Origin: a virus
Lineage: Duplodnaviria > Heunggongvirae > Uroviricota > Caudoviricetes
Direction: 5' to 3' (one strand)
IMG/VR virus record: IMGVR_UViG_2915331061_000005
Length of the DNA stretch: 64,000 nucleotides
In this document: piece after piece, positions 9,302-40,604 of the stretch
How positions within the stretch are numbered: position 1 is the first letter of the stretch
Layout: every line of letters starts with the position of its first letter
Made by a program: the position numbers and the translations under genes
Notes under the pieces: generated by a model
Told to the model about the DNA's origin: nothing
Seen by the model: only the letters and a program-made list of their open reading frames with translations
Databases searched by the model: none

Positions 9302-10912
9302 ATGAAGAAACAACCAACCGGCGGCAAGCGTCTTGTTGCCTACTACCGCTACAGCGGCGGCAGTCATCAAACGGAGCAGTCCATTGAGGGGCAGCGCCGG
9401 GACTGCGAAACTTACGCCCGTATCCATGGCATGGTCATCCTGCATGAATACATTGACCGGCATATCTCCGGCAAGACGGACGACCGCCCGGAGTTTCAGC
9501 AGATGATCGCCGATGCTGGGAAAGGGATGTTCGACTATGTGATTTGCTGGAAAACAGACCGCATTGCCCGCTCCCGGTATGACAGCATCGTCTATAAAAA
9601 GAAGCTCCGTGACAACGGCGTGGAGCTACTCTATGCCGCAGAAGCCAACGTTGAAGGCTCCGGCGGTATCATCGTGGAGGGCTTGATGGAAGCCCTTGCC
9701 GAATACTACTCTGCCGAACTGGCCGAGAAGGTGCGGCGCGGTATGCGGGAAAGTGCCTTGAAGGGCAAGGCTATCGGCAGTTCCCGTCCCCTTGGTCTTA
9801 CCGTGGACAAGGATAAGAAGTATATCATCGACCCCGCCGGGGCTGCCGCCGTGCGGTATATCTTTGAGCAGTACGCCGCCGGGGCTGCGTCCTCTGCTAT
9901 CGTTGCACACCTGAATGAACAGGGCTTGTGCACCAGCCGGGGCAACCCGTTCAATAAGTCCAGCGTGGTGCGTATCATCCAAAACGAGGTGTATCGGGGC
10001 GTGTATGTCAGCCCCAAGTTTGACGTGCGCATTGAGGGCGCAGTACCGGCCATTATTGACGACGATCTATGGGAGAGGGCGCAGAAGATGTTTATTCGTA
10101 ACCGTCAGAGCCGTTCCCCGCGCAATGACCGCGCGGACTACATCCTGTCCGGCAAGCTGTTTTGTGGCGAGTGCGGCACTGCCATGAAGGGCGTGTCCGG
10201 CCACAGCAGCAACGGCGAGGTGTACTTCTACTACAGCTGTCCGTGCAAGGACTGCCACCGCCGGAACATCCCGAAGGACGAGCTGGAAGGTCTGGTAATC
10301 CGCACCGTCTGTAACGACGTGTTGCAGCCGGACGTGATGGATCGCATTGCAGACAGTGTGATCGAAGCCCAGACCGCCGAACTGAACCAGCCAAACCCGG
10401 AGAAGGAAGCATTGCAGCACGAGCTTGCCGACGTGCAGCGCAAGGCAAAGAATCTGCTGTCTGCATTGGAGAACGGCACCGCCGGGGCTATGCTGACCAA
10501 CCGCCTTGCCGAACTGGAACAGCAGGCCAACACGCTGTCCTATCAGCTGTCGTCGCTGGAATCTGAGCCGAAGTTCCCGGTCTTCTCCAAGGAAGAAGTT
10601 CTGTACCTGCTGGAACAGTTCCTCATTGCCCCCAGCGAGAAAACCAAGGCATACCGCCGCCGCCTAATCGACACCTTTGTCAGCAAGATCGAGGTGAGCA
10701 ACACGGAACTGACCATCTATTTCAACATTGCCGAGGAAGATTGTGGAAAAATGAAAAAAGCTCCCCAGTCGAACCAGCCCGAAGGCTGTTCGACTGAGAA
10801 GCAAATGGTCCACCTTGCACATCAACAAGCGAACTATTCCCTTTATGCGGCTTCCGGCTACTTTTCACTGGTTGAACACCAATTTTCGGCCCGTTTGTGG
10901 CGCACCGCATAA
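9302..10912 (+). CDS. Large serine recombinase (phage integrase)
   Basis: Resolvase catalytic domain (VAYYRYSGG...EGQRRDC), recombinase domain, zinc ribbon (CGECG...CPCKDC) and C-terminal coiled coil. ~65 % identical to 62456..64000. Confidence 0.85.
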   Translation: MKKQPTGGKRLVAYYRYSGGSHQTEQSIEGQRRDCETYARIHGMVILHEYIDRHISGKTDDRPEFQQMIADAGKGMFDYVICWKTDRIARSRYDSIVYKKKLRDNGVELLYAAEANVEGSGGIIVEGLMEALAEYYSAELAEKVRRGMRESALKGKAIGSSRPLGLTVDKDKKYIIDPAGAAAVRYIFEQYAAGAASSAIVAHLNEQGLCTSRGNPFNKSSVVRIIQNEVYRGVYVSPKFDVRIEGAVPAIIDDDLWERAQKMFIRNRQSRSPRNDRADYILSGKLFCGECGTAMKGVSGHSSNGEVYFYYSCPCKDCHRRNIPKDELEGLVIRTVCNDVLQPDVMDRIADSVIEAQTAELNQPNPEKEALQHELADVQRKAKNLLSALENGTAGAMLTNRLAELEQQANTLSYQLSSLESEPKFPVFSKEEVLYLLEQFLIAPSEKTKAYRRRLIDTFVSKIEVSNTELTIYFNIAEEDCGKMKKAPQSNQPEGCSTEKQMVHLAHQQANYSLYAASGYFSLVEHQFSARLWRTA

Positions 10913-10995
10913 TCTGTAATTACTTTGTAATCTTTGTGCAAACAAAAAATGCCCCGCCAGCAATCCGTCAGGATGCCAGCGGGGCATTGCTTTAC

Positions 10996-11313
10996 TTAGT
11001 GGAGATACCTTGCCAATTCAGATGCAACAAAGCCTGCGATCACTGCCGCAATGACTGCCCACCAGAGTTTGTTTCCAAATACTCCGGGGGCTTTTTCCAG
11101 CGCGGTCAAGCGGTCGTCCTGCTTCTTGTTCTGTGCCGTCACAACTTCAAGGCTCCGGTTTGTGGTTTCGAGTTGCTGGATGGTCAACTTGATATTGGTG
11201 TTCATGCCGTTTACTGCATCGGTCAGCTTCCCCAGCTCGTCCAGCCGGTGGGTGTTGCTCTGTGCACGGTTTTCGACCGCTGTCAGGCGATGTTCCAGTT
11301 CCTCGTCAGTCAT
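10996..11313 (-). CDS. XhlA-like protein (coiled coil plus C-terminal TM), lysis accessory
   Basis: MTDEELEHRLTAVENRAQ... coiled coil then WWAVIAAVIAGFVASEL. Start with GGGGGAGAA RBS. Confidence 0.5.
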   Translation of the reverse strand: MTDEELEHRLTAVENRAQSNTHRLDELGKLTDAVNGMNTNIKLTIQQLETTNRSLEVVTAQNKKQDDRLTALEKAPGVFGNKLWWAVIAAVIAGFVASELARYLH

Positions 11314-11701
11314 TACGCTTGTTCTCCCCCACGTTACCGAAATGGGCCACAGTAGTGGTTTCTGCAGATTTCTTTGCCATGTAATCTTCGAGCTTCTTCT
11401 TGGTAAAGTCGAACACAAGTTGCACGATCCAATCCAGCGTCCGCTCATTGATTGCCCAGTCCAGCCAGTCCGGGGTGTACCCACGCAGTACGGCAATGAC
11501 ATGGGCTTTCTTTTCTGCACCCGCGCCACTGCCGAACTTTTCCTCTGCGTTGACGATCCACTTGTACACAGTCTTTGCGACCACAAGGCCGTAGCCCAGA
11601 CGTACCGCCGCCAGCGCCGTGACCACAAGGCCGACCATCATGAAGATACAGGCCAGCCATTCAGGGAATGCCATCAGAAAAACTTTCAGAATGTTCTCCA
11701 T
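11306..11701 (-). CDS. Holin (LL-H/Dp-1 family-like)
   Basis: N-terminal TM helices then NAEEKFGSGAGAEKKAHV motif typical of LL-H holins. Confidence 0.55.
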   Translation of the reverse strand: MENILKVFLMAFPEWLACIFMMVGLVVTALAAVRLGYGLVVAKTVYKWIVNAEEKFGSGAGAEKKAHVIAVLRGYTPDWLDWAINERTLDWIVQLVFDFTKKKLEDYMAKKSAETTTVAHFGNVGENKRND

Positions 11702-11719
11702 TTTGTTTTCCTCCTACTC

Positions 11720-12133
11720 TTAACCCACCCAACGGCTCTTTACCGCACGGGTGTCGATGTGTACCCAGCCAGCAGGACGACCAGTTTTTACCGGGTAACG
11801 TCCGATGCCGCCGGTGTTTTTCAGCAGCGTTTCGGCGTAGGTCGCGAGCGTTTCCACGTCCACGCCCTGAATCCGAATATCTGCCGCCATACCGTAGCAA
11901 TGCTGACTGTACGTTGCGCCCTTGACCGCCTTGTTATGGGCGGCAGTGCGATATGCGCTGGTGATCGTAACAGCCTTTCCAAAGTGATTCCGGATGTTCT
12001 GCAACAGTTTCACCAACACATCATCAATAAAGATGGGGTCAGTCCCATCCTTGCAGCGAAACTCTTTCACGGCAAAATTTGCGGACAGTTTCTTGTTACC
12101 ATCCTTTGCCAGTGAATAGGCTTTAATCGCCAT
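11720..12133 (-). CDS. Endolysin, peptidase M15 (VanY/D-Ala-D-Ala carboxypeptidase-like)
   Basis: TSAYRTAAHNKAV...SQHCYGMAADI zinc-binding motifs of Peptidase_M15. Confidence 0.75.
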   Translation of the reverse strand: MAIKAYSLAKDGNKKLSANFAVKEFRCKDGTDPIFIDDVLVKLLQNIRNHFGKAVTITSAYRTAAHNKAVKGATYSQHCYGMAADIRIQGVDVETLATYAETLLKNTGGIGRYPVKTGRPAGWVHIDTRAVKSRWVG

Positions 12134-12285
12134 TGTCGTTTTCTCCTTTCTGGCTCAATGCCATTTTGCAGCCGCTCGACCCGCACTCAGCCACCAGCAC
12201 GGCAAATTCGCCGCGCTCTGCGGTCGTGTCCGCACCACTGGTTTCCAGCCGGGTCAGCAGGCTTTCGCACAGATCGGGCCAGCTT

Positions 12286-12453
12286 TTATGCTGCATAGTC
12301 TTCGCCCGTGATGTCCTTGTAGTCGTCTGCGGTGATCTCGCCCTTGTTTATGCGCTCGGCCAGAACTTTCTTGACACCGGCGCGGCGGGATGCGGGCATC
12401 TCTGCCCAAGTCTTAGTGCCTGCAATCAGGCGGTTTGCCCAGATAATGTTCAT
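12286..12453 (-). CDS. XkdX-like small phage protein
   Basis: 55-aa ORF MNIIWANRLIAGTKTWAEMPASRRAGVKKVLAERINKGEITADDYKDITGEDYAA. The ITxxxYxxITGE motif resembles PBSX XkdX. RBS GGAGGT. Confidence 0.4.
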   Translation of the reverse strand: MNIIWANRLIAGTKTWAEMPASRRAGVKKVLAERINKGEITADDYKDITGEDYAA

Positions 12454-12465
12454 GGTGATACCTCC

Positions 12466-12669
12466 TTATTCCTTGTTCAGCGCTGCGTCCAGCTCACACA
12501 GCGCGGTTTCGATGTCGGTCAAGCGCTTCTCGTTGGCCGCGTCCTGTTCGCACAGGGCATCTTCCATTTCAGCCACACGGTCGGGCAACTGTTCGTGCTC
12601 CTGCTGCTTCTTGGCTGCGGCTTCCTTCTCCTGCCGGGTGGGCAGATTGTCCTTTTTCCACTGAATCAT
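12466..12669 (-). CDS. Small coiled-coil hypothetical
   Basis: 67-aa ORF with heptad-like repeats. Confidence 0.35.
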   Translation of the reverse strand: MIQWKKDNLPTRQEKEAAAKKQQEHEQLPDRVAEMEDALCEQDAANEKRLTDIETALCELDAALNKE

Positions 12670-12683
12670 GGTGACTGTCCTCC

Positions 12684-13943
12684 TTACTGGAATGCGCCGG
12701 AAACGGCCTCGATATAGCCGCCGGTGCCGGATTCGCCGCGCTCCACGCTGACGCGGAAGTTAAACGCCGCGCCGTTGGTGGCGGTCTTATTCTCAAAGAC
12801 GATGTTCACGCCTTTTTTTGCCTCGGTCGTGGCATCCTGCCAGACCGGGGAGCTGTCGAGTGCGTTGTTGGTCACTTCGGCTTTGAACTTCGCATCATCG
12901 GGGATGGAGCCGGTCACCTGAAGCACGGCAACGGTAATGTCGCCCTCAACGGCCAACGGTTCAGCCAGCGTCACGCTTGCGGCGTGGACGGCCTTGGTAA
13001 AGGTCGCGGACGTGCTGACGGTTTCCTTGCCGTCGCTCACCTCAACGGTGATGGTGTGGTTGCCGTTCAGGATTTTCTGGAATCCGGCAGCGCTGGCCGT
13101 CTGCTCAAAGGTCAGGGCCGTGCCGCTGGCAACGCCGGTGCGGATCTTGGTGGTCTTGCCGTCCAGCTTTTCGGTGACGGTCAAGGTGTCGCCGTCGGCA
13201 TCCCTGACGGTGTACTTCCACGCAAAGGCCGCGTTCTTCCGCCCCAGAGCTGCGTCGTCCGTGCTGACGGTAGGTGCAGTGTTGACACTGACCGTGCCAT
13301 CGTCAGAGACCACGAGTGTAGAGGGAAGAATGAAAGCGGGGCGAACACCATAGGAGTCGTTGTACCAGTCGTAGCTGCTGGAGCCATCGGTGTTGACGCT
13401 CCAGACGTTGTAGTTATTGCCGGTGTACGGAGAGCGCAGCCACCAAATGGCAGCGGAGCTGCCATTGTATGCAATACGCTTGCTGTTACCGCTGGAGCTG
13501 TTGCCAAAGTATGCCAGCCTCACACCGTCCTTCGGGAAATAGCCGTTGTCGCTGGTCGTCCAACCAACCTCATAACCAGACAGCAGGAACACTTTGGTGC
13601 TCAGGCCGTTGGAGCCGGTGGCAAGGCTGCCGCCGGAACCAGTGCCGTTCTGGTACGGGATTTTCACCTGCTTAATAGCCGCCCGGATGTTGCTGTCGAT
13701 GAGGTTGTAGAACGTTCCGTTCAGGTATGTGTGGATGCTGGAATCCTTGTAGGAGTTATTGCTGCCGAACGTGGACGTGGTGTAGATGTCCTTCATCAGC
13801 AGCCACGTTCCATTGCAACTCGAATCATAGGTGCTGGTGTTCGGGTTGCCCTGCTGCACAACAATAAAATCTTTGGACGCGCCGTTGACTTTGATTTTGA
13901 CAATGCTGCCAACGGCTTTCGTGCCCAGTTTTACGTTTGCCAT
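12684..13943 (-). CDS. Tail fibre / receptor-binding protein, DGR target 1 (VR1 encodes residues ~163-203, including YGVRPAF)
   Basis: Start MANVKLGTK with GGAGGT RBS. Contains VR1 with A-to-N mismatches against the TR. C-terminal Ig-like region. Confidence 0.7.
   Translation of the reverse strand: MANVKLGTKAVGSIVKIKVNGASKDFIVVQQGNPNTSTYDSSCNGTWLLMKDIYTTSTFGSNNSYKDSSIHTYLNGTFYNLIDSNIRAAIKQVKIPYQNGTGSGGSLATGSNGLSTKVFLLSGYEVGWTTSDNGYFPKDGVRLAYFGNSSSGNSKRIAYNGSSAAIWWLRSPYTGNNYNVWSVNTDGSSSYDWYNDSYGVRPAFILPSTLVVSDDGTVSVNTAPTVSTDDAALGRKNAAFAWKYTVRDADGDTLTVTEKLDGKTTKIRTGVASGTALTFEQTASAAGFQKILNGNHTITVEVSDGKETVSTSATFTKAVHAASVTLAEPLAVEGDITVAVLQVTGSIPDDAKFKAEVTNNALDSSPVWQDATTEAKKGVNIVFENKTATNGAAFNFRVSVERGESGTGGYIEAVSGAFQ
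13335..13455 (-). repeat. DGR variable repeat VR1
   Basis: 121 nt, ungapped alignment to TR 15364..15484 with 10 mismatches, all at TR adenines (minus strand). Confidence 0.8.
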
Positions 13944-13963
13944 TGTTACCTCCTTGTTTTCGT

Positions 13964-15193
13964 TCAGGCCCACGGCATGATCTCCGCGGGCCGCGTGTTC
14001 TGCGATACAGAGAGGGACAGGGCTTTGTGCTGCTTCTTGTAGATGCAGCGGCATTGCCTCGCCCGCCGTCTGTCACGCGCGAGTTTGTTCGAGTTGATTT
14101 TTCGATGGATAGGGATTTTACAGTCAAGCAATTTTTCGAGCCGGTCAGCGTACTTGCGGCGTAAAGAGTAAGTATCACCATGGGCGGCATGGGCATCCCA
14201 CGCATCAAAGCTCCGCAGGATTTCCTGCTTGGTCACTTCGCCTGCGGGGTATGCCGTCTCCCAATATCTGATCTTGTTCTTCATCCGCTTGGAGCTATCC
14301 CGGCGCAGCTTTTGGATGACCGCGCCGGTGTCGGTCAGGTAGCTATGGAATCCAAGAAAATCAATACCGTTCCGCAGCGGGAAAATGGCGGTTTTCTGGT
14401 TCAGCTCAAGGCCGTAACTGTCCATGAGCTCCCGAACATCCCGGAGAATGCACTGCAATTTCTTCTTGTCCGAACAGATGATATAGAAATCATCCATGTA
14501 TCGGCCATAGTATTTGATGCGGTACTTCTCTTTGATGATGTGGTCGAACTCATCCAAAAACATCAGCGCAAAGAGCTGGCTCGTCTGGTAGCCCAGCGGC
14601 AAGCCGTCCTCCATCACGTCGATGTAGATGCAAAGCAGCTCATAGACACGCGGGTCAACGCCGCGCTTGTCCAGCACGGCCTTGAGTTTGCGTTTTAACT
14701 TCCGGTGGTCGATGCTGGCAAAGAAATGCCGCACATCGCCTTTCAGCACCCAGCCGTCCGCGCCGTGGCCCTCACGGCGGTAATAGTCCACCATGTGAGT
14801 TTTCAGGCGCATCAGGCCGTCGTCTGTGCCTTTGCCGGTCTGGCTTGCGTGGCTGTCCCGGATAAAGCTCTTTGTCAGAGCATCATACAGGATGTTATCG
14901 ACCAGCGCGTGTAGCACCACCTTGTCCACAAATGCGGGGGCGTGTACCATGCGGCGCTTCGGCTCATAGACGGCAAAGACCTCAAACTTACTTGGCACAT
15001 AGCATATCTGCTGCCGGATGTCGCCGCCCGGCTGGCGTACATCACGCACAGCCAGCTTGCGGGACAGCTTTTCCGTGCAGGCCAGCGCCTGCGCCTCGTA
15101 CTCGATTGTTTTGCTTTTACTGCGCTTTCCCTTCCGGGCTTCAAGGTAGGCTTTGTAAAGCACCTCAAAGCTGCACAGTTCTTCGTATGTCAA
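13964..15193 (-). CDS. DGR reverse transcriptase
   Basis: LPLGYQTSQLFAL (DGR-specific [I/L]GxxxSQ motif 4) and YMDDF catalytic motif. 409 aa, adjacent to TR. Confidence 0.8.
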   Translation of the reverse strand: MTYEELCSFEVLYKAYLEARKGKRSKSKTIEYEAQALACTEKLSRKLAVRDVRQPGGDIRQQICYVPSKFEVFAVYEPKRRMVHAPAFVDKVVLHALVDNILYDALTKSFIRDSHASQTGKGTDDGLMRLKTHMVDYYRREGHGADGWVLKGDVRHFFASIDHRKLKRKLKAVLDKRGVDPRVYELLCIYIDVMEDGLPLGYQTSQLFALMFLDEFDHIIKEKYRIKYYGRYMDDFYIICSDKKKLQCILRDVRELMDSYGLELNQKTAIFPLRNGIDFLGFHSYLTDTGAVIQKLRRDSSKRMKNKIRYWETAYPAGEVTKQEILRSFDAWDAHAAHGDTYSLRRKYADRLEKLLDCKIPIHRKINSNKLARDRRRARQCRCIYKKQHKALSLSVSQNTRPAEIMPWA

Positions 15194-15363
15194 AATGACC
15201 CTCCGCTGGTTCGCGTTGCGGTAGTGGGCTGCATCCGGCAGGGATGGCCCACCTCAGCGGGATGTATTTATCACTTGCCTGCATCGGCAAGCGACAGGAT
15301 GCGGTTTCCTTTGATGGGCGCACTGCTTTCAGCTTATGCCTACTCGTCACACGGTTCCATCAG

Positions 15364-15484
15364 AGCGGGGCGAACACCATAGGAGTTGTTGTACCAGTTG
15401 TTGTTGTTGGAGCCATCGGTGTTGACGTTCCAGACGTTGTTGTTATTGTTGGTGTTCGGAGAGCGCAGCCACCAAATGGCAGCG
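15364..15484 (-). repeat. DGR template repeat TR (AAC-codon-rich)
   Basis: Minus strand is rich in AAC (plus strand gttgttgttgtt). Matches VR1 and VR2 except at A positions. Lies 170 nt upstream of the RT. Confidence 0.8.
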
Positions 15485-15534
15485 TCAGACAAACAAACCG
15501 CACCCTTTATGCAAAGCGGTTGCCCGCTGTGCGT

Positions 15535-16110
15535 TTACGGTTCCGGGTAAAGGACGGCTTTCAGGGCGGCAGCCTGTTCGGTCAGCCGTTTCCGTTCCGC
15601 TTCTGCCCGGAGTTTTTCGGCACGTCCGCGTTCCGACGTGAGCCACTTCATCGCCGGGTATTTTACGTCCGTGACCTTCTTTGTCCAGATACCGGCTTTC
15701 TTCGCACTGATGATACCTTCCTCCGTGCAGATGGCCAGGTATTCCAGCAGTAGAGAGCAACCGTCCACGACCGCGCCGATCTTCTCAACGCGCCTGTCGT
15801 AGTCGGTCTGGAAATTCACGTTGTTCGCCGCGTGTGCATCCAGCAGGATTTGCCGGGCGGTCAGCCGGATGCCCTCGCCGTACAGCCGGAAAGTGCTTTT
15901 GGAAAAGCCCTCCCTGTCCCGCGTGTCGAGTGCATGGACGGCAGTGCCACACACCTTCTGGATGTCGCGCACATCTTCGAGCGCTGCGACTTTCTGGATG
16001 ATCTTCCGGGCATCGCTCCGGCTGATGTCATCGGTGACGATGCGGGTTGCCCTCTGAGTGTAGCGCAACAGCTCCCGCGCATTCGCGCCGACCTTGAATG
16101 TTTCAGCCAT
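15535..16110 (-). CDS. Putative DGR accessory protein (Avd-like by position; helical, basic)
   Basis: Sits immediately upstream of the TR in the avd position. 191 aa, longer than the canonical ~130-aa Avd. Assigned by position only. Confidence 0.3.
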   Translation of the reverse strand: MAETFKVGANARELLRYTQRATRIVTDDISRSDARKIIQKVAALEDVRDIQKVCGTAVHALDTRDREGFSKSTFRLYGEGIRLTARQILLDAHAANNVNFQTDYDRRVEKIGAVVDGCSLLLEYLAICTEEGIISAKKAGIWTKKVTDVKYPAMKWLTSERGRAEKLRAEAERKRLTEQAAALKAVLYPEP

Positions 16111-16496
16111 CAGAACTCCACCCTCGCCTGTTCTGCGTTCCACACGCCAGTGACGGTCAGGCCGTCAAGGCTGCTGAACGTGGCGGAAAAAGGATTTTTC
16201 GTCACGTTTGTGCCGAACTTCAGCTCAATGGCCTTGATGCTGGCGTTCATAGCTGCCACACTGGCACGGATGTCGCTGTGGGCGTTCTCCGCACCGTTGT
16301 GAGCGTCCACGGCTGCGCTGATGCGCTGGTCGGTCTCGGCCTTTTTGTAGCCGTCCACTTCCCACCGCTGGCTCTCGGTCAGGTGGCCGTCTGCATCCAG
16401 CGTGGCAATGCCGCCCGGTACGCCGATCTGGTCAGTGCGGACAACATCTTCATCCGGCGCCTTGCCGGGGCCTGCGTTAAAAGAACCGTATGCCAT
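16110..16496 (-). CDS. Tail fibre protein (GIATLDADGHL motif)
   Basis: Conserved tail-fibre N-terminal motif. ATGA-type coupling with the downstream gene. Confidence 0.45.
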   Translation of the reverse strand: MAYGSFNAGPGKAPDEDVVRTDQIGVPGGIATLDADGHLTESQRWEVDGYKKAETDQRISAAVDAHNGAENAHSDIRASVAAMNASIKAIELKFGTNVTKNPFSATFSSLDGLTVTGVWNAEQARVEF

Positions 16497-16946
16497 TTAG
16501 GTTCCCCCTTCCTGTGCATCCGTGTATTTCACGGTGCTTGTAATGTGATACTGTGCAGAAATTTTCTCGGTCGGAGCTTTGGCGGCCCTCAGCCGCAGCT
16601 TTCCTTCGAGGCTTTCGGTCGCAATAAAGCCCACCGCACCCGCCACATCGTAAAATTCCGGCAGTACCGTAACATCCACAATGTCGGTAGCCAACAGGCC
16701 CGCAATGGGGATGTCACAATAAAAATAGCCGGGGGAGGAATCATCCTCGCCCCAGCCATCGACCGGAATCGTAAAAGACACCGCAGCCGTGACATCCTGC
16801 TTTTCGTGCAGGATGTCATCGGTTTCCTCGAATCCGTTTGCCGTTGCTTCGGAAAGGTCTCCGAGTGCGGTGTTGCACTGCTTGATGTGGCTGCAAAGCG
16901 CGGCAAGCCCTGTGCCCAAAAGCGTTTTGATCTTCGCTTTTGCCAT
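16497..16946 (-). CDS. Tail-associated hypothetical protein
   Basis: Position within the fibre/baseplate cluster. Confidence 0.35.
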   Translation of the reverse strand: MAKAKIKTLLGTGLAALCSHIKQCNTALGDLSEATANGFEETDDILHEKQDVTAAVSFTIPVDGWGEDDSSPGYFYCDIPIAGLLATDIVDVTVLPEFYDVAGAVGFIATESLEGKLRLRAAKAPTEKISAQYHITSTVKYTDAQEGGT

Positions 16947-16966
16947 AGAGCTTACCTCCTCATGTC

Positions 16967-17836
16967 TTAGTCAGCCAGCAGAGCGGCGATCTCCTCTGCG
17001 GAGAAGTCCTCCACATCCTCGTCGTGCAGAACATTCTCCGGCTCGGTGTACACGACGACTTCCTTGCCGTCAATGTTCACATTGCCGTTGGTGGAGCTGG
17101 CTGCGGTCTTGGTGGCACCCTCAGAGACACCGGCCAGCTTTTCGCCCTCGGCATCGGTCATCAGGCGCTTGCCAGCCTCGGCGGCCACAAAGTCGGCAGG
17201 CTTCTTGCCGCTGTCGGTCAGGTTGCCCTCGCCGTCCAGCGCAGCGAGGTTGCCGGTGGTAGCACCAGTGACCTTATCGGCCTTGCCGGAAATGTCCACT
17301 TCCTCAGGGGTGGGAACATACAGACCGTCGTCCTTCAGGGTCAGAGCGTTGCCCGCAGCAGCGGAAACATTGACCTTGACATCCACCTCATAGCCAGCGA
17401 TGGTAACGGTGGTGGAAGCATCCTTGCCGACGGCCTTAGCCTTGTAGGTATCCACCAGCGCAGCCATGCTCAGGAAAGAGTAGGTGCAGGAGTCAGGATT
17501 CTCGCCCTTGACGGCCAGCACCATGACGGGCTTGCCGTCCAGCTTGGGGTCGGTAGCGCCGGGATAGGTGGCGGCATCGAACTTGAACTTTGCCACGAAG
17601 GTGGTCTTGGTCTGGTCGAGGAACAGCTCAGAGGGGAAGTCAACGGAGAAAGCAGCAGTGCCGCTCTTGTCGGTAGAGGTGTAGAAGTTCACGGTGTTGC
17701 CGTCAACGCCAAGAGACTTGATAGCAGCGTTGGCTGCGGTCTGCACAGGGGTAAAGGCGTCCTTCTTGACGAAAGTCTTCTTGATCTCAGCGGTCAGGTT
17801 GCGGATGGTGGTCTTGGTAGAAATCTGCTTAGACAT
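16967..17836 (-). CDS. Tail fibre / baseplate-attached protein (XkdV-like)
   Basis: GNLAALDGEGNLTDSG fibre motif. Position. Confidence 0.4.
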   Translation of the reverse strand: MSKQISTKTTIRNLTAEIKKTFVKKDAFTPVQTAANAAIKSLGVDGNTVNFYTSTDKSGTAAFSVDFPSELFLDQTKTTFVAKFKFDAATYPGATDPKLDGKPVMVLAVKGENPDSCTYSFLSMAALVDTYKAKAVGKDASTTVTIAGYEVDVKVNVSAAAGNALTLKDDGLYVPTPEEVDISGKADKVTGATTGNLAALDGEGNLTDSGKKPADFVAAEAGKRLMTDAEGEKLAGVSEGATKTAASSTNGNVNIDGKEVVVYTEPENVLHDEDVEDFSAEEIAALLAD

Positions 17837-17855
17837 AATAGTGTCCTCCTAAAAA

Positions 17856-18980
17856 TTATTTCAGCATATCAACGATTTCCTGCTGCGTTTCTTCCTCGTC
17901 GAGCAGGTCTTCACTCGTCATAACGGTTTCTTTGCGGACGGTCAGCGCGTTTGCGCTGTCGAAGTCAAGACCTTCGCCGATGCGGACGGCAATAGCGCCG
18001 CTTGCGTCGCGCTTCAAGCCCTGACCGATGCTTACGCTACCGGTTTCACCCGAACCACCTCCTTTCCCGAACAGGGTTACGGTCGCCTGAATATCTGCTT
18101 CCGGGATGCGCTGAGCGAAAAATCTGATGAAACCATCATGCGTTTCGCACCCGTTCAGGACGCCCGCTTTGGTCGTAGTATAGAAGCTGCCGGGAGATAC
18201 AACGCCAACGGGTACAAGCTCGCTGGTGCTGTCCGACAGTTCTGCATCATAAATGCACTGGTAGTAATCCATACCGCCAGCGTTTTCGTAATCATCCTCG
18301 CTGCGGGCGGGCTTCCACCCGTCAGCCGCAAGGGTGAGTTCGTAGGAGCCATAGTAGCCGCCTGTTCCGCCGTCCACCTGTTCCTTGATAAGAGCCTTTA
18401 CCTGTTCTTCGTTCAGGATTTCCCCGGATTCAGACAGGTTCTTCACGGCTGCGCTGACCGCTGCCGTGATAGTCGCCGCATGGGCGTCGGCGGCGGCGTT
18501 GTGCTTCTCAATTTCGGCCTTGACCAGCTTCATCAAAGCCTGCATCTGCGGGCTGAGGGCAATTTCGATTTTTGCTTTGTTCGAGATTGCAATAAGGGCA
18601 GCAATCTCAATTTCAAAATCAGCGTTCACGCTGGATGCAGGGACTTCGATTCCACGTTCATCCTGCATGATGAACAGCAGCACTTCGGCATCATCATTCA
18701 GGCGGCCATATACGCCGATCTGGTGCATGATGTAAGTGCTTTCTGCTCCGGTAATCTGGATGCTGACTTTCCGGGCCGTTTCCTCTCCGTCCTTTACGGT
18801 GTCAATCGCAAGGATGGTCAGTTCGTGCGTTTCGCCGCTGACGGTCGTTTCTGCCGACAAGTCGGTTTCAACGATGCCGGTGCCGCTCACGGCGCGGGTG
18901 ATGGTGAGCGCGCCGCCGGAGAGGGATTCCGACAGGAGCGCGGCACCGGCAGTTGTATAACTGGATTTTTCCCAACTCAT
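17856..18980 (-). CDS. Tail fibre / baseplate protein
   Basis: 374 aa. Position after the baseplate I-like gene. Confidence 0.4.
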   Translation of the reverse strand: MSWEKSSYTTAGAALLSESLSGGALTITRAVSGTGIVETDLSAETTVSGETHELTILAIDTVKDGEETARKVSIQITGAESTYIMHQIGVYGRLNDDAEVLLFIMQDERGIEVPASSVNADFEIEIAALIAISNKAKIEIALSPQMQALMKLVKAEIEKHNAAADAHAATITAAVSAAVKNLSESGEILNEEQVKALIKEQVDGGTGGYYGSYELTLAADGWKPARSEDDYENAGGMDYYQCIYDAELSDSTSELVPVGVVSPGSFYTTTKAGVLNGCETHDGFIRFFAQRIPEADIQATVTLFGKGGGSGETGSVSIGQGLKRDASGAIAVRIGEGLDFDSANALTVRKETVMTSEDLLDEEETQQEIVDMLK

Positions 18981-19753
18981 GTTGTCTGTCCTCCAATCTT
19001 GATGGTTACGGTTTCGTGCGTGTGCGCAAGCCCGCCGGTGGCGTATGCCTGCGCGGTGATGTTTTTCGGGTGGATGGCTCCGGGCAGTTCAACGGTCGTC
19101 TGCATCCGCGCTGCGCTCATAGCACCGGCAACATAGCCACGAGCCGTGACGGCGCGGGGTTTGATGCTTCCGGGCAGCCAAACGGTGCAAAAGGCAGCCA
19201 TTCCGCAGGGTGCGGCGGCGATATAAGCGGGCGACCGTTCATGCGGTTCGACGATGTAGATGATGTGCTCAAGGTGAGCAGTGCAGCGTTTTGTGTAGCC
19301 CAGCAGCTTTTCCATTTCTGCTGCGGTGTGATATGTTTCCTGATCGTCGGTGATGTCAACATACAGTTTCCAGAATCCCGGTGTCCCCCCATACGAGAAC
19401 CATTCCTCAATTCTGGCTTTTTTGTAAATTGTCTCCACCTGTTCACGAACAGCCTTTACCGTTCCTGCATAACGCTGGATTTCAATTGCGGTTCTTACGA
19501 GCTTACGCTTCGTCTCAATATCGGCGGCAGAATCGTACCATTCGATTTTGAGATAGATTGCCATTTGATCCAGCATTCCCTCGCTACAGTTATCCACATC
19601 CGAGAACGTCATGCCCGTTGCCAGATATTCCAGCATCCGGCCTTGAAGTTCCCCGTATACTGCAGACAGCACCTTTGCCCACGGCTGTTCAGCAACGACC
19701 CGCGGCAGTCCATCTGCAATTCTCGCGTCCTGCAGCTTAATCATCCTCGACAC
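18977..19753 (-). CDS. Baseplate/tail protein I-like (XkdU/DUF2313-like)
   Basis: Position immediately downstream of baseplate J. Size 258 aa. Confidence 0.4.
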   Translation of the reverse strand: MSRMIKLQDARIADGLPRVVAEQPWAKVLSAVYGELQGRMLEYLATGMTFSDVDNCSEGMLDQMAIYLKIEWYDSAADIETKRKLVRTAIEIQRYAGTVKAVREQVETIYKKARIEEWFSYGGTPGFWKLYVDITDDQETYHTAAEMEKLLGYTKRCTAHLEHIIYIVEPHERSPAYIAAAPCGMAAFCTVWLPGSIKPRAVTARGYVAGAMSAARMQTTVELPGAIHPKNITAQAYATGGLAHTHETVTIKIGGQTT

Positions 19754-20918
19754 CTCCGTAGATGATCGTCGGGGTTCCGCTCAGTTTTGGGATTTGCACT
19801 GTTGCTTTTTCCAAATCCGAACCGCCTTCGACTACCATGTAAACCGGTTGTCTAAGCTCTACTCGTTTTACGCCAGCGACACGCAAGCGATAAATCAATT
19901 CCATCGGGCTAATGTCTCTCCCGATGGAGCGCTGCCACTGCTGAAATTCCTCAACAGCTTTTGTAACGTTTTCCTGAACAATACTTGCGCCCTTCGCGTT
20001 GCCCGCTCCGATATAATAGGTAAAGTCAATTCCGTACTCCACTTCTTCCGGGGCCTTACAGATCACCTGATCTGTCATGGGGCGTCGAGCTTCGTTCATC
20101 AGATATGCTTGCATTTCGCTCATATCCTTTTCACTCGGCATCCTTCCGCCCGTCAGCATGAAAAAGATATACACTGTGCAAGGCTGGCTCCGTGGACTGA
20201 CTGCAATTGCATTTTCCACATCAGAGCGGAAGCTCATTGCCCAATACTCGTAGGCGTCTCGCGGCCCTGCGCAACTATACGTTGTCGGTGACAGCCAAAT
20301 CCGCCGGGTCAAGCTATCGTCGCTTTCCGCGTCTGCGCCGCCGCTGGATGTATCCACATTCTCCACTGCCGCAACATAAGGAATGGCGTCTACCAGCGTA
20401 TCGACAACGCCGATTGGAACGTCGTTTCCGCTGGCTCCTACCACCTCGGCTTGCGCCAACACATCAACATAGGTCTCGCCAATGGCAATCTGTGCATAGG
20501 CCGCTGTGGCAAAATAAATACCCGCGGCAGTTCTGACGCGGGTTCCCTGTGGAATCATTACAACTGTTTTTTGTTCAGCCGAAAGATTAAATCGGATTGT
20601 CACCGTTGCATAGGTTGCTTCATTCCGCTTCACGCCGAACGGAAGCCCCATATTATCCAGCGCTGCACCCGTTGCTGTTTTCAGCAAGGCGCAGCGGGTT
20701 CTTTTTTCTGCAACCTGCAGCACCATGTAATACAGCTCAGAAATACTTTTCAGCGTAAGAGTGATTGGGTCAGCACTGTGCAACGGCGGGGTTGTTCCGT
20801 TTACCGCTTTGTAATTTCGGGTGTAAATTTCTGTCACCAGATTATTTACATCCTCAAGCGTCATATTATCTGTGACGCTATACTCCGGGATTTCGGCAAA
20901 TTCAGCGATATTAGACAA
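19737..20918 (-). CDS. Baseplate J-like protein (XkdT/gpJ)
   Basis: 393 aa. Order V-W-J-I as in P2/PBSX. Confidence 0.6.
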   Translation of the reverse strand: MSNIAEFAEIPEYSVTDNMTLEDVNNLVTEIYTRNYKAVNGTTPPLHSADPITLTLKSISELYYMVLQVAEKRTRCALLKTATGAALDNMGLPFGVKRNEATYATVTIRFNLSAEQKTVVMIPQGTRVRTAAGIYFATAAYAQIAIGETYVDVLAQAEVVGASGNDVPIGVVDTLVDAIPYVAAVENVDTSSGGADAESDDSLTRRIWLSPTTYSCAGPRDAYEYWAMSFRSDVENAIAVSPRSQPCTVYIFFMLTGGRMPSEKDMSEMQAYLMNEARRPMTDQVICKAPEEVEYGIDFTYYIGAGNAKGASIVQENVTKAVEEFQQWQRSIGRDISPMELIYRLRVAGVKRVELRQPVYMVVEGGSDLEKATVQIPKLSGTPTIIYGGVEDD

Positions 20919-21237
20919 TGTTTATCACCACCTTCGGTCGAATGTTCCCCTGCTGGCTTCGGCTGGTTTCATAGCTTACTTCCAGCACTTGTGCCCTCGG
21001 TTCGTACTTCTTTGTCTTTCGGATGATCTCTGCCGTGAGCTTCGCTTCGGCAGCTTCGGCTGGCAGGCTCAAGCAGTCCATGTTCAGGCCAAACTCCCGG
21101 TCAAGTGCCTGTTCACCTTCTCGGCTCCCATAAAGCGTCTTGAGACAGTTATATACATCCCGTTCTTCTGTGCTTTCGGACGGATTGATCTCTACATCAA
21201 TATCGCCCAGTATCAGCTTTTCCAGCTCACCGCTCAT
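20911..21237 (-). CDS. Baseplate wedge protein (gpW/gp25-like, XkdS-like)
   Basis: Internal start MSGELEKLILGDIDVEINPSE... ~108 aa. Position. Confidence 0.4.
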   Translation of the reverse strand: MSGELEKLILGDIDVEINPSESTEERDVYNCLKTLYGSREGEQALDREFGLNMDCLSLPAEAAEAKLTAEIIRKTKKYEPRAQVLEVSYETSRSQQGNIRPKVVINIV

Positions 21238-21644
21238 GTGTACTCCTTTAGCGTCAAGGTCAGCTTTCCGCTTGTCAGTCCCCAGAACCGATGTACCGCG
21301 CCCCATTCATCCGCTACTTTTTCAAGCATAAACGGATTTTGAGAAACCGGCCTGTTGTTGATGATGAAGTAGTCTACTGCTCCGGCTTCGCACAAATCCA
21401 TTAGGGCGTCAAAGACCTTTCGCGGATTTACTCCCAGCCTTGAACTAAGCGTAATGTTGAACTGATACTCTCGCAGGCCGGGACTTACATATTCGCTTTT
21501 ATCTTTTCCGCCGATCACGCTGTGCGTCGCCCAGTTGCTCGACGTACTTCCACTGATGTTGTCCGGCGTAAGAACTCGCCAACTTGATACCGTAAACACC
21601 AGTCCAGCAAAGCTACCGATGCTGCCCCATGCCATAAAGAACAC
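21234..21644 (-). CDS. Tail/baseplate hypothetical (XkdR-like position)
   Basis: 136 aa, between spike and wedge genes. Confidence 0.35.
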   Translation of the reverse strand: MFFMAWGSIGSFAGLVFTVSSWRVLTPDNISGSTSSNWATHSVIGGKDKSEYVSPGLREYQFNITLSSRLGVNPRKVFDALMDLCEAGAVDYFIINNRPVSQNPFMLEKVADEWGAVHRFWGLTSGKLTLTLKEYT

Positions 21645-21648
21645 CCCC

Positions 21649-22266
21649 TCACTTTACCGGGACGCCGGTATTCCCCGAAACAGTATACGGGCCAGCTTTT
21701 GCCGACCCGTCATGTTCGTGCTTGTGATTCACAAGGCTTACGCCATTGATTTTGCAGTCGCCAGAGCCGCCCGAAATATTCACCGTTGCTCCTGTGATTT
21801 TCACCGTCGTTCCGGTAATTTCAATCGTTCCGCTCTGGCAAACCTTGACGGTCGAAGCCCCGACCTTGAAGGTCACGTCCCCACCAACAGTGAAGTCCAG
21901 ATTTTTACCGATGGTCTCTTTTGCATTCCCGTCGATTTTTTCTTCATAGTCTCCGCTATCTCCATCGTATTGTTCAAAGGCTTTGCCCTTCTTATCGTTG
22001 TAGTCATACCGGTAACGTTGTTTCTTTCCACCGACCGGCTTGTTATCCTCATTCCAGAACGTTCCGATGCACGTTCCCATTTCCTGACTATCGGAATTGT
22101 GGAGAACGCAAACCATAGCACCGACAACCGGCATCCGGTACAGCGCATTTGAAACCACACAGATTTCATCGGTCACAGAACCGTCCCGATCTTCATATGC
22201 AACTTCAATTGTGCCATCCTCGTAATTCACTTTGGACACTGTGCCAATGCGAATGACGCTGCTCAT
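21649..22266 (-). CDS. Baseplate spike protein (gpV-like OB-fold plus beta-helix)
   Basis: N-terminal VIRIGTVSKVNYEDGTIEV...CVV and C-terminal ITGTTVKITGATVNISG repeats. Confidence 0.5.
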   Translation of the reverse strand: MSSVIRIGTVSKVNYEDGTIEVAYEDRDGSVTDEICVVSNALYRMPVVGAMVCVLHNSDSQEMGTCIGTFWNEDNKPVGGKKQRYRYDYNDKKGKAFEQYDGDSGDYEEKIDGNAKETIGKNLDFTVGGDVTFKVGASTVKVCQSGTIEITGTTVKITGATVNISGGSGDCKINGVSLVNHKHEHDGSAKAGPYTVSGNTGVPVK

Positions 22267-22270
22267 CGTG

Positions 22271-23269
22271 TCACCCTCCCACTCTGCTTGCTGAGACCTT
22301 CGTCACAAAACCGCCGGATTTATTCATGGTGTGCCCTACACTGTCCATGTAATATTTTCCGTCGATTTTCCCATATCCTTCCACGTCAATACACTGCGTC
22401 GCGCAATATGTCAGGTTTCCCATAGTCGTAAAGGAAATGGTTGTAGCCGAATGGTTTTTGTTGTCGATAGCCGCCTGCAGCTGCCGTTTTGCGTCCGCTT
22501 CACTTGATGCATACTGGTTTAGCTTCAACATCCGGTCTGCCGTTCCGATTGTCACCTTGATATTCACTTTTTTCTTTTGGTTGGAATAAGTGAACTCGCC
22601 TCCGGTGTATGTTCCTGCCAGCGTTGTGTTCCAGCTCAACGAGCCGGGCACAATGTCAATCGGTTTTACCGTTGCTACCGAATCCTTTTTCTTGTACTTT
22701 TCACGGTCAAAAATCCAGATTTTGTTCCGGTATGTTTTGAGGATCAGCCCGTATGTGCTGCAAATTTTCTGCAAGAAAGAGCTGTCATTATCGTCCTGTT
22801 CTTTCAGAGCGACGCTGACATCCTCTGCATCCATCTTGCATTCCAAGCCGTACCGCCCAGCAATGGTTTCTGCAATGCGTTTGATGCTCGTGTTCTTCCA
22901 AACCTGCTCTCTGTTTTTTTCATGAAAGCTCGTCCCGTTTGGCCGGGCGACCGCTCCAATCGTCAAAACATCCGGGCAGGCCGAAAAGCTCAGATCATCA
23001 ACTACCAGCGTTCCACAATCCAAAACGGTTCTATCCCCCTGCACGATCCAGTTTGTCGTGCAGAGGGTCGGGTGCAGCACAGCTTCCTTGTCTGGCATCC
23101 ACGAATCGATCCACTTGTGATCCATCGCGTTTACCTTAATAGAAAGGCTGTCACTCGAATCCGAACCGCTATCGGTGTATGTGAAGTTTTCCACATCTTT
23201 GCGGATGTCGCTTGAAATGTCCTTTCCGTCATATTCAAGCGTCAGGAACGCTTGACGTGGCGTAATCAT
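22271..23269 (-). CDS. Tail protein gpD/XkdQ-like
   Basis: 332 aa, directly downstream of tape measure and LysM genes as in P2/PBSX. Confidence 0.45.
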   Translation of the reverse strand: MITPRQAFLTLEYDGKDISSDIRKDVENFTYTDSGSDSSDSLSIKVNAMDHKWIDSWMPDKEAVLHPTLCTTNWIVQGDRTVLDCGTLVVDDLSFSACPDVLTIGAVARPNGTSFHEKNREQVWKNTSIKRIAETIAGRYGLECKMDAEDVSVALKEQDDNDSSFLQKICSTYGLILKTYRNKIWIFDREKYKKKDSVATVKPIDIVPGSLSWNTTLAGTYTGGEFTYSNQKKKVNIKVTIGTADRMLKLNQYASSEADAKRQLQAAIDNKNHSATTISFTTMGNLTYCATQCIDVEGYGKIDGKYYMDSVGHTMNKSGGFVTKVSASRVGG

Positions 23270-23279
23270 CCCTCACACC

Positions 23280-23483
23280 TCACCTTTTCCAAGGCGGCAG
23301 ACTTTCGTCTGTTTTTGCCTTAACTTCCACTTCCGGCGTGGCAAGCACCACCCCGGAATCAAACTTGTACACCTCGATATACTCCCGGTTGGCAGTCATC
23401 AGCACATCGGCTTTCAACTCGTCACCGTAGACAGTTTTTGCAATACCATCCCAAGTGTCACCGCTCTTTGTCGTGTAAGACAT
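23280..23483 (-). CDS. LysM-like tail protein X (XkdP-like)
   Basis: YTTKSGDTWDGIAKTVYGDE LysM-like motif. 67 aa. Confidence 0.5.
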   Translation of the reverse strand: MSYTTKSGDTWDGIAKTVYGDELKADVLMTANREYIEVYKFDSGVVLATPEVEVKAKTDESLPPWKR

Positions 23484-23495
23484 CAGGCCACCTCC

Positions 23496-26400: not shown

Positions 26401-26999
26401 GTCTGGGCAATTTCAGCGGCGGTCGTTGCGTAGTGGGCACCCAGATAGTTAATCTGGTCTGCCAGCTCCATGACCTGATTGTGGTTCATGTTGAATGCAA
26501 CTTCCCACTTTGCTGCCCAGTCGCCTGCCTGATCCGCAGAAATATCCATGGCCGTGCCCATTTCGGCAACGTCCTTTAGAAACCCGCCGCTTATTAGGTC
26601 ATCCATGCTCTTTCCGGACTGACCAGCCGCAGCTGCCAGACGTGTCAGCTCTTTGGCGGTGTACGGAATTTGTGTGCTCAAGTCAAGAATGTCTTTCGAC
26701 ATTTCCGCATAAGCGTCCGTTTTGACCTTTCCGTTCGCGTCCGTCAGACCGCCAACGTACTTCGTCACATCAAGCATTTCGCTTTCAAATGCAACTGCTT
26801 CTTTTGTTGCATCTACCAGCCCCGCTGTAATGCCGCTTGCTATGCCCACCGTTACTTTTGCGATATTCGCTGCCAGTTTCGATGCGCCGTTCGCCATACT
26901 GCTGAGCTGAGTATTCGCAGACTTTACAGCCTGCGTCAGCGAGTTATCAACGTGACCGCCGATCAAAATAGAAAGCTCTAGGGTTTGATTTTTTGCCAC
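23496..26999 (-). CDS. Tail tape measure protein
   Basis: 1167 aa, Ala/Gly-rich helical repeats, position after the chaperone. Confidence 0.85.
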   Translation of the reverse strand: MAKNQTLELSILIGGHVDNSLTQAVKSANTQLSSMANGASKLAANIAKVTVGIASGITAGLVDATKEAVAFESEMLDVTKYVGGLTDANGKVKTDAYAEMSKDILDLSTQIPYTAKELTRLAAAAGQSGKSMDDLISGGFLKDVAEMGTAMDISADQAGDWAAKWEVAFNMNHNQVMELADQINYLGAHYATTAAEIAQTVNDTGSLGQIAGMDVQSTAALSTALLAMGVDSDKVATSIRRMYTNLSMGSKATDAQSAAFEQLGFTAEQFAKDMQKDAPAALKSLFTAIGTQPKDKQVGYLKTLLGQWAIESGAKLTGNLDLFVKTLDDVGDASKYNGSMYKEFMLKCETSESVLTMLGSVWRAVRIEVGNNFLPVLKDVAGFGIEKLNDLRAALPDIAERVRQVIEYLLNNGDKVAATIAGIGTAWAGMRFAPQILQVVSSATKFASGAASPVGLVQKGVSGAGKAGNLWQAAKLGTQLANSAVPAGSNPSFGQRVQNTILGSVLGMQNSKKLFGAKTPAGMAKATSALFGSIQQAQASGGIIGLLKGSSIGQYGARVARSAKNLAGTDFIQNTVGVGKWIGQKVAGTQLGGFVGNMGQKAMGFGQGLLGGAKNIAGTAIGGVKNLAGRAASTKAGQFALKVGGGIAKGTGDTFKFLGSGLSLANTAVGPIAGKLGGAFMGLLGTFGPVITGIGGIIAVVSLLGDHFEDIRQIVGNVFGEKGLAMFDGFTSKIHDIAGNVRDSVSNAFSLENLQNIQQSLSGKSIFGIDDLGTTFGAVIPIIESVKGLIGQIVDLGVNHIKPLLADIMSFAVNELFPAVSPLISMIISLVGTTLINAIKLVVDVIHGLLPVIEPVIQGIVGLIKGIVSVTITVVNAIIGTLNKVSFTVPDWVHALGGKKFGFNLKEVAMPAFANGGFTHGVSIAGEAGTEAVISFKPSVHDSNVENWVRAGRMLGVSGEDATRAAGVRYFANGGFTDGSKEKLDNLIDFSKAYGKYALRSNGIRTTGDALSMLWTVANNSMSGDASLALAATSIAADVAPLLLNKYLGSDSPVTTALTEAAKNYNGGTVLSSWQDGVLTDTGTPLYVLPPRDTGRTLSEIPVSAYQNTPAPGGNGGSSPQFVFAPNITITGDADRQQIASIMEDEYEKFKAFMDKYNRENNRTRYA

Positions 27000-27139
27000 T
27001 CCTCCGCCACCTCCTCGTTGATTTCCACCAGCTCACGCACGGGCAGATTCAGGTAGAAATCTGCGCTCGTGTGTGTAGCCGTGGCGAGGGCTATCGCCGC
27101 CTTTCTGATGGTTTTGTATCCGCCCTTTAGGCGAAAAAA
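26977..27139 (-). other. Predicted -1 frameshift extension of the tail assembly chaperone (slippery heptamer T-TTT-TTC at 27133..27139 on minus strand)
   Basis: Zero-frame codons GAT-TTT-TTC-GCC-TAA. The -1 frame continues ~50 aa (FFRLKGGYKTIRKAAIALATATHTSADFYLNLPVRELVEINEEVAEEWQKIKP) to a stop overlapping the tape-measure start. Confidence 0.5.
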
Positions 27140-27792: not shown

Positions 27793-27868
27793 GGTGGTTT
27801 TCCTTTCTGTTCAGATATAAAAATTGACCGCCCCGGTCTTTCGGGGCGGTCGCTTCATTTCTTTGGCG

Positions 27869-28396: not shown

Positions 28397-28417
28397 TATT
28401 TATTCCTCCTTTCTGGG

Positions 28418-29866: not shown

Positions 29867-29879
29867 GTTCTCTCCCTCC

Positions 29880-31724: not shown

Positions 31725-31736
31725 GGTAATACCTGC

Positions 31737-32015: not shown

Positions 32016-32032
32016 ATTCCTGCTCCTTTCTC

Positions 32033-33109: not shown

Positions 33110-33124
33110 TGAAACGTCCTCCTG

Positions 33125-33523: not shown

Positions 33524-33526
33524 CGT

Positions 33527-36296: not shown

Positions 36297-36308
36297 CTTC
36301 TACTCTCC

Positions 36309-38399: not shown

Positions 38400-38485
38400 C
38401 TCTTACGCAAGCTGGGAACATACACAGGATCAGCCTTTGGTGGATGCGTTTGCCCCACGGGCAGTGCTTGCAAGCGCCGCCGGGC

Positions 38486-40550: not shown

Positions 40551-40604
40551 CTAGGCTATATGCCGCCCTAGTAACCCCCTATAGTCCCCCTTCTTCCCCG
40601 CTTT

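Follow-up and report, generated by a model that had tools for sequence, protein, structure and literature searches.

A candidate target-site signal beside the two variable repeats of a diversity-generating retroelement in a Faecalibacterium prophage

Of the steps in mutagenic homing, the least understood is how the cDNA of a diversity-generating retroelement (DGR) locates and enters its target. To our knowledge, target entry has been studied essentially only in BPP-1, where the initiation of mutagenic homing (IMH) element acts with a hairpin. A 64,000-nucleotide stretch of viral DNA (IMG/VR record IMGVR_UViG_2915331061_000005; hereafter the window, meaning the whole stretch) raises the question of what else could mark a repeat as a recipient: it holds a DGR with one template repeat (TR) and two variable repeats (VR1 and VR2) that, together with its relatives, offers a natural contrast, with two targets per element, no hairpin, no near-copy of the IMH in the TR (IMH*) and a bounded block of silent-site conservation beside the VRs. 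Our leaning, held with modest confidence, is that a flank shared by the VRs forms the VR-specific half of an IMH-like element at the target site, overlapping the coding end of a DUF6273 domain. A function as an IMH-like target signal, as judged from sequence, is plausible.

The flank shared by the two variable repeats

The TR and both VRs, read on the minus strand, share one 3' end, ...GGTGTTCGCCCCGCT; their common 3' sequence, ...TCCTATGGTGTTCGCCCCGCT, has its last base at 13335 in VR1, 15364 in the TR and 51979 in VR2. Beyond this end, the original prediction had placed a flank common to the VRs at 13300..13334 and 51948..51978. Alignment of the three 3' flanks showed these coordinates to be correct: the VR flanks match at 23 of 30 ungapped positions, including a 14-base run and a 7-base run (CCCTCTACACTC and GGTCTCT), and read GAGTGTAGAGGGAA...AAGCGGGG on the plus strand. 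The immediate divergence of the TR was equally evident. From 15363 it continues (minus strand) as CTGATGGAACCGTGTGACGAGTAGGCATAA, the unrelated sequence being the start of the spacer that separates it from the reverse transcriptase (RT) gene, and over positions +1..+7 it matches the flank at 3/7 bases (VR1) or 2/7 (VR2), then at 7–8/23, the level of chance. Allowing gaps, which the original prediction had named as a way to refute it, did not recover a copy of the flank: in local alignments of each VR flank against the TR flank plus the 170-nt spacer, 418 and 425 of 500 shuffles scored at least as high as the real sequences. The flank is ~30 nt long and pyrimidine-rich, and across the 64-kb window its motif CCTCTNNNCTCNNGGTCTC occurs at the two VR ends and nowhere else, against an expectation of 0.03 occurrences.

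The repeats themselves behave as those of a DGR. Every TR–VR1 and TR–VR2 mismatch falls at a TR adenine, and an RT gene and the gene for the accessory variability determinant (Avd) adjoin the TR. The TR is 100% conserved in most of the related viral contigs and the VRs differ, with 22 distinct VR2 sequences among 23 occurrences of the GTTCGCCCCGCT anchor. The last mutable TR adenine lies 17 nt from the repeat end, and the A-free stretch that closes all three repeats (Table 1) contains a GC-only core of 8 nt, CGCCCCGC. Relative to TR/VR1, the small target carries an insertion of 8 codons (ATPYGTPN) that separates WWL from RSP (52081-52110 of the window, on the minus strand and immediately upstream of VR2); the TR homology of VR2 therefore starts later (102 nt as compared to 121 nt), so that the 5' limit of mutagenesis differs between the two targets.

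Overlooked in the original prediction was that the flank is protein-coding. Both targets carry a DUF6273 domain with the VR at its C-terminal end, and in both the reading frame runs through the flank, which encodes the domain's end, L-P-S-T-L-x-V-S. In the large target the Pfam DUF6273 match scores 135.9 bits against a cut-off of 23.5 (1.7e-39), with residues 81-245 of the open reading frame covering profile positions 1-172 of 172, and residue 245, where the profile ends, falls inside the flank. In the small target the match spans the last part of the protein only and scores 23.4 bits, just under the cut-off. By BLASTP the two target proteins are alignable only from WWL to ...PSTLxVS (E=3e-15).

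Conservation at silent sites and linkage to the retroelement

We gathered related loci in three ways, obtaining 80 viral contigs via the RT, 52 via the small target and 49 genome loci via an amino-acid pattern, and aligned the codons of 19 DGR-linked large-target lineages (less than 93% nucleotide identity, with domain identity to the window down to 48%). At conserved residues, mean pairwise codon identity was 0.91 over flank codons +1..+10, as compared to 0.65 in the TR-covered VR and 0.57 elsewhere (sd 0.17, n=87); at residues with at least four codons it was 0.96 in the flank and 0.50 elsewhere. The top 9-column run elsewhere reached 0.71. The comparison of flank and remaining columns gave a Mann-Whitney p=1.2e-5, a p-value that is indicative only, as the 19 lineages are mutually related and such values overstate their independence.

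Column by column, the codons CCC (-1) and GCT (0) of the GC-rich repeat end are invariant in 19/19 lineages, as are CCC (+4), TCT (+5) and CTC (+7); TTG (+1) is found in 15/15, GTC (+9) in 17/17, CTT (+3) and TCT (+10) each in 18/19 and TTG (+8) in 14/15, with codon +6 free. The family consensus is TTG ATA CTT CCC TCT nnn CTC TTG GTC TCT, with a strict core CCTCTnnnCTC that usually reads CTTCCCTCTnnnCTCTTGGTCTCT. This constraint ends abruptly at GAY GAY (+11, +12): codon +11 is GAC in 10 lineages and GAT in 9, and variation is at background again. The flank is therefore a sharply bounded island of silent-site conservation, with the VR side and the downstream codons both synonymously diverged. 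Codon bias was rejected as the source of the identical codons: AGC/TCC and CTG prevail in the remainder of these genes, and the codons that are fixed in the flank (TCT, CTT, CTC and TTG) are in the minority there. These data support a constraint on the flank that acts at the nucleotide level beyond the needs of the protein.

A conserved island between diverged stretches argues against recent transfer or gene conversion, and this bears on the possibility, raised with the original prediction, that a longer duplication unrelated to homing carried the flank along with the repeat, either once or through conversion between VR1 and VR2. The 23 of 30 identical bases within one genome are what such copying would leave. 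The similarity, however, ends ~30 nt past the repeat, the two genes are unalignable as DNA upstream of the TR-covered part, and VR2 has its 8-codon insertion after WWL. Moreover, the same flank recurs in lineages with RT identities of only 54-64% and in both small-target subtypes, and conversion within one genome cannot explain its retention across diverged lineages. We rejected a recent duplication on the grounds that the similarity is both bounded and conserved across lineages, and consider copying of this kind very improbable.

The flank also follows the retroelement. Of the loci in the genome sample, 24 have a TR (A-specific mismatches) with an RT beside it (54-99% identical to the window RT), and all of them carry the flank motif, whereas 20 DUF6273 homologues with no TR or RT in the available sequence (some on contigs that fall short of several kb on either side) use other codons and often other residues, at a domain identity of 42-64% that overlaps the DGR-linked range. 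Both subtypes of the small target retain YCC TCT nCA CTC TkG GTC TCT. Among the IMG/VR contigs, every motif hit that could be evaluated (109 of 109) is found 9 nt past the RPA-coding ...CGNCCNGCY end, and CGCCCCGCT is present in nearly all. A nucleotide-level conserved block that is tied to DGR targets and occurs in most related elements is as expected of a recipient-site signal, and suggests that the flank is one.

Five further genome loci bear the motif, four of them on contigs too short for a TR. The fifth, at ~6267 of locus L176, is a DUF6273 gene with the canonical flank CTT CCC TCT ACA CTC TCG GTC TCT and no TR or RT within 6 kb upstream and 5 kb downstream; it may be a remote target like VR2, or an orphan DGR target.

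Several observations weigh against a homing role, beyond the relatedness of the lineages: firstly, the flank lies within the Pfam DUF6273 match, so that part of its conservation is protein-level; secondly, the amino-acid pattern that defined the genome sample spans flank residues +1..+4; thirdly, MT835552 (RT 57% identical), a related and active DGR with A-specific VR/TR differences, has its flank recoded to CTC CCC TCC ACC CTC TCT GTG AGC, the first half still being pyrimidine-rich; and fourthly, the flank of FP_Brigit (RT 58.5% identical), TTG CCC TCT ACT CTC TTG GTG TCT, shows two synonymous changes. The flanks of MT835552 and FP_Brigit imply that the exact sequence is not strictly required across the wider clade. 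Further out, MT837771 (RT 45% identical) has CTT AAA TCT TCT ATC TTG GTA TCT GAC, which still uses CTT..TCT..TTG GTA TCT GAC and counts in favour of the target-site reading, and phage nd4 (RT 41% identical) keeps parts of the motif in CTG TCC TCT GAT CTC CTG ATC TCC. Possibly the flank signal is degenerate, or it co-evolves with its RT.

Much of this could be read as protein homology and nothing else, the similarity of the flanks coming from a conserved L-P-S-T-L-x-V-S at the C-terminal end of DUF6273 with no role for the DNA. In favour of this reading, both genes run through the flank in frame, the DUF6273 profile extends into the flank and BLASTP aligns the two proteins across it; homologues without a DGR retain the peptide pattern [LF][IV]LP..L.V, and MT835552 encodes the same peptide in other codons. 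Protein homology does account for part of the similarity. It does not account for all of it: silent positions are near-invariant and filled by non-preferred codons in genes whose remainder is synonymously diverged, equally diverged homologues without TR/RT use other codons, and the VR1 and VR2 flanks have identical codons at 6/6 identical residues in proteins that are otherwise unalignable. As a full explanation, protein homology thus seems quite unlikely to us.

Alternatively, the block could act at the nucleotide level in a role other than homing, as a cluster of slow codons that aids folding of the hypervariable domain, as an mRNA element or as a recombination junction for cassette exchange. 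The use of minority codons, the position of the block exactly at the end of the DUF6273 domain and the pyrimidine-rich first half of the recoded MT835552 flank would all be compatible with such a role. A pause at rare codons, however, would accept any rare synonym, and one codon is fixed per position (for example TCT in 19/19, CTC in 19/19 and CTT in 18/19 lineages). The block is also kept in two downstream contexts, with Ig-like domains next in the large target and the protein ending shortly afterwards in the small one; homologues without a DGR lack it, and no RNA or DNA structure is predicted for it. We regard a non-homing element as unlikely, and return to the reading of the flank as a target-site signal, which leads to the question of how such a signal would be recognized.

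Template flank, spacer RNA and comparison with BPP-1

The TR's own flank is the start of a structured spacer RNA. It forms a helix with a downstream strand, TGATGG:CCATCA, for which 97.5% of cells were paired in a 16-lineage alignment and slid controls collapsed; in the L056 lineage, CGGCTG is paired with CAGCC, amounting to three compensatory pair changes. Between the two strands stands a short stem-loop with both-side changes at 6/6 pairs (16 lineages). Stem-loops have been described directly downstream of the TR in many DGRs (bioRxiv 10.1101/2023.10.23.563531), and the covarying tetraloop-type stem-loop found here just past the TR shares their position and form. The Rfam RT-2 RNA model (RF03077) matched the spacer at 15180..15356 over the full length of the model (22 bits, E=0.0047) and did the same in the L153 spacer (29.1 bits), both below the gathering score of 40. 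The pairing between TR flank and spacer, marked by compensatory changes, accounts for the inability of the TR to retain the VR flank.

Most lineages (L138, L149, L077 and others) have CCATCATCAAAGG at +45..+62 after the TR, with the ATCA unit doubled, in place of CCATCAAAGG in the window; this doubling gives the predicted primer strand two registers in which to pair with the TR flank.

In BPP-1, the DGR RNA forms a TR118-129:Sp47-56 template:primer duplex with priming at A56/G57 (PMC6182149). The counterpart at this locus would be the TGATGG:CCATCA helix before AAAGG, ~50 nt downstream and shorter, at 5-6 bp. Further likenesses to the BPP-1 IMH are that the element sits at the VR 3' end and marks the 3' limit of adenine mutagenesis, that a GC-rich stretch common to TR and VR is followed by sequence separating VR from TR, and that the TR counterpart joins the spacer duplex from which cDNA is primed, the priming site being a predicted one here. 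There are also clear differences. The (GC)14 of BPP-1 is replaced by a GC-only run of 8 nt inside 16 A-free nt. Unlike the BPP-1 IMH*, which matches at 16/21, the TR counterpart here matches at 3/7 and then at chance level; family-wide, identity between the TR and VR flanks is 50% over +1..+7 and 22% over +8..+30, with no near-copy of the IMH* kind found in the TR, and past 7 nt the sequence is spacer RNA structure. The GC-rich inverted repeat that the IMH definition based on BPP-1 places 4-34 bp downstream (a 7-10 bp stem with a 4-nt GRNA loop) was not found, and, again unlike BPP-1, the element lies within coding sequence, with ~210 codons still to come in the large target.

To the points against a homing role given above, these comparisons add the matter of structure and pairing. 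Neither VR is followed by a hairpin: folding the next 95-110 nt as DNA gave z values of +0.09, +0.54, -0.20 and +0.48 against shuffles, with no structure shared. A weak CAGTG/CACTG stem after VR1 was dropped as a hairpin candidate, since it has no VR2 counterpart and, by inspection, is not kept in L056. Neither strand of the VR flank was significantly complementary to the DGR RNA between -160 and +185 relative to the TR end; duplex z values ranged from -2.4 to +1.0 at inconsistent positions, on which grounds guide-like pairing was rejected, and the only recurrent pairing site in the scan was the purine-rich ribosome-binding site of the RT gene. By inspection, the VR flank offers the predicted primer RNA no better match than the TR flank does (4-5 bp with VR as compared to 5-6 bp with TR in the main lineage, and poor pairing with VR1 and VR2 of the window).

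In BPP-1, the IMH together with IMH* sets the direction of homing (PMC3240598, PMC5703328), and the IMH has been proposed to act by pairing with the cDNA-linked primer RNA (PMC5703328). With a primer RNA that pairs no better with the VR, this model, the only published mechanistic idea for the IMH, does not fit the locus. The original prediction had invoked the asymmetry between IMH and IMH* and proposed a search for a GC-rich element with a hairpin. The asymmetry stands insofar as the VRs share a flank of which the TR has no copy, that flank is constrained at the nucleotide level and it is linked to TR and RT; it falls short in that neither an IMH* near-copy nor a hairpin is present. Likewise, an A-free GC-rich 16 nt does precede the flank, and no GC-rich hairpin or cruciform follows either VR (z ~0). 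The interpretation given with the original prediction is thus partly supported.

The locus fits the account that Wu et al. 2017 (PMC5758913) give of surveyed DGRs with identical predicted IMH and IMH*, for which recognition 'would have to extend downstream'. According to the same survey, internal VRs must have an IMH that overlaps, and is constrained by, coding sequence, and inverted repeats accompany just 34% of DGRs. What is added here to the survey is a delimitation of the downstream part, with synonymous constraint shown in one clade. The Lelie/FP_Toutatis DGR (PMC11792537; Cornuault 2018, PMC5883640) is the same element, with two VRs and DUF6273 targets that have the VR at the C-terminal end. 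Its published description (PMC11792537) covers the TR, VRs, RT and target domains and contains no analysis of an IMH, the VR flanks or the spacer RNA ('IMH' there is an author's surname). Although the retroelement has been published, the delimitation of a candidate IMH for this clade may therefore be new.

By analogy with BPP-1, the duplex of TR flank and spacer would prime cDNA synthesis near the boundary of TR/VR homology, and the 5' end of the cDNA would then integrate via the shared GC-rich 16 nt. The VR-only flank would act in cis to mark the repeat as a recipient and would be recognized by its DNA sequence, either by a host factor or by the RT-Avd-RNA particle, and not through base pairing. 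With no such flank at the TR, information would flow from TR to VR only. A broader possibility, which we put forward tentatively and with less assurance than the target-site reading of the window itself, is that the block with its core CCTCTnnnCTC is a hairpin-less homing signal shared by a whole clade of DGRs in Oscillospiraceae phages, read as sequence and not via the primer RNA; it would then represent a second, mechanistically different type of IMH. Were the flank indeed the signal, remote DGR targets in gut phage genomes would be predictable from sequence alone, the minimal target for re-aiming these DGRs in protein engineering would be known, and the proposal of pairing between IMH and primer RNA would not be general. 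Were it not, the finding would come down to coding conservation in an already published DGR.

The prophage and its other features

The window is a Faecalibacterium phage Lelie/Toutatis-type prophage carrying a DGR with two VRs. Its DGR region is 97.5% identical to that of Faecalibacterium phage Lelie and 94.5% to that of FP_Toutatis, and its RT is 99% identical to the Lelie RT. The prophage limits, ~10806..63969, place the TR and both VRs in one phage. The order on the minus strand is Avd, TR, spacer, RT and large target, with the second, small target 36.6 kb away (Table 1). The start of the large target was set at MANVKL, as inferred from orthologues, and the gene begins ~20 nt past the RT gene; the Avd gene is without any Pfam match.

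Table 1. Features of the DGR and its two targets in the window (coordinates of the 64,000-nt stretch).
Feature	Position	Strand	Details
Avd gene	15535..16143	-	PHROG phrog_3206 'Avd protein of DGR', E=4.9e-36; Toutatis RefSeq orthologue annotated Avd
TR, 121 nt	15364..15484	-	Repeat family D6; all VR1/VR2 mismatches at TR adenines
TR-RT spacer, 170 nt	15194..15363	-	Structured part of the DGR RNA; layout conserved across lineages
TR flank +2..+7, TGATGG	15357..15362	-	Template strand of predicted template:primer duplex; pairs with CCATCA at +47..+52 in all lineages
Stem-loop just past TR, GGC-ATAA-GCT	15331..15340	-	Short; between the two duplex strands; longer GNRA-capped stems in relatives
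Predicted primer strand, CCATCA	15312..15317	-	Invariant AAAGG directly after; assigned by analogy with BPP-1 Sp47-56/A56/G57
DGR RT gene, 409 aa	13964..15193	-	Pfam RVT_1 3.3e-19; PHROG reverse transcriptase 7.5e-123
Large target gene	12684..13943	-	N-terminal DUF6273, then Ig-like domains; PHROG 'Hoc-like head decoration' 8e-146
VR1	13335..13455	-	TR repeat partner; related contigs differ at TR-adenine positions
VR1 3' flank	13305..13334	-	TTCATTCTTCCCTCTACACTCGTGGTCTCT; TTC ATT CTT CCC TCT ACA CTC GTG GTC TCT = F-I-L-P-S-T-L-V-V-S; candidate VR-specific part of IMH-like element
A-free GC-rich 3' end, 16 nt	VR1 13335..13350; TR 15364..15379; VR2 51979..51994	-	TGGTGTTCGCCCCGCT; identical in all three repeats
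Small target gene, 215 aa	51859..52506	-	phrog_9958 2.5e-83; phrog_32827 also supports
VR2	51979..52080	-	TR homology begins later, at CGCTCTCCG
VR2 3' flank	51949..51978	-	TTGTACTTTCCCTCTACACTCTGGGTCTCT; TTG TAC TTT CCC TCT ACA CTC TGG GTC TCT = L-Y-F-P-S-T-L-W-V-S

Two relatives drew attention through their repeats. In the viral contig L052 (5741-5863), an indel is needed to align the VR with the TR (123 as compared to 119 nt), and the reading frame through the VR is shifted relative to the rest of the domain; it is possibly a disrupted target or an assembly of mixed VRs. In the FP_Toutatis RefSeq record (L182 2212-2364; NC_047915.1 49048-49200), the TR is annotated as a 50-aa coding sequence, 'DUF6273 domain-containing protein' (HOS68_gp80), which is almost certainly a spurious gene call.

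Outside the DGR, ~10 kb at the left edge of the window (1-10341) is 71-94% identical, block by block, to the integrase-proximal prophage end at 53149-63501, and looks like the end of a second, related prophage in tandem with the Lelie-like one. Short intergenic repeat blocks occur at 41706-44104, 42472-45763 and 60760-61389; they include a 55-nt GC-rich element in three copies, a 44-nt block in three copies that ends AAAGGAG...ATG and resembles repeated translation-start regions, and a 67-nt pair, 93% identical and 563 nt apart. Finally, a related prophage locus (L142) contains two matches to type II hammerhead ribozymes ~280 nt apart, at 10055-10119 and 10332-10396, one above the Rfam gathering score (42.3 as compared to 37 bits) and the other just below it (33.9 bits).

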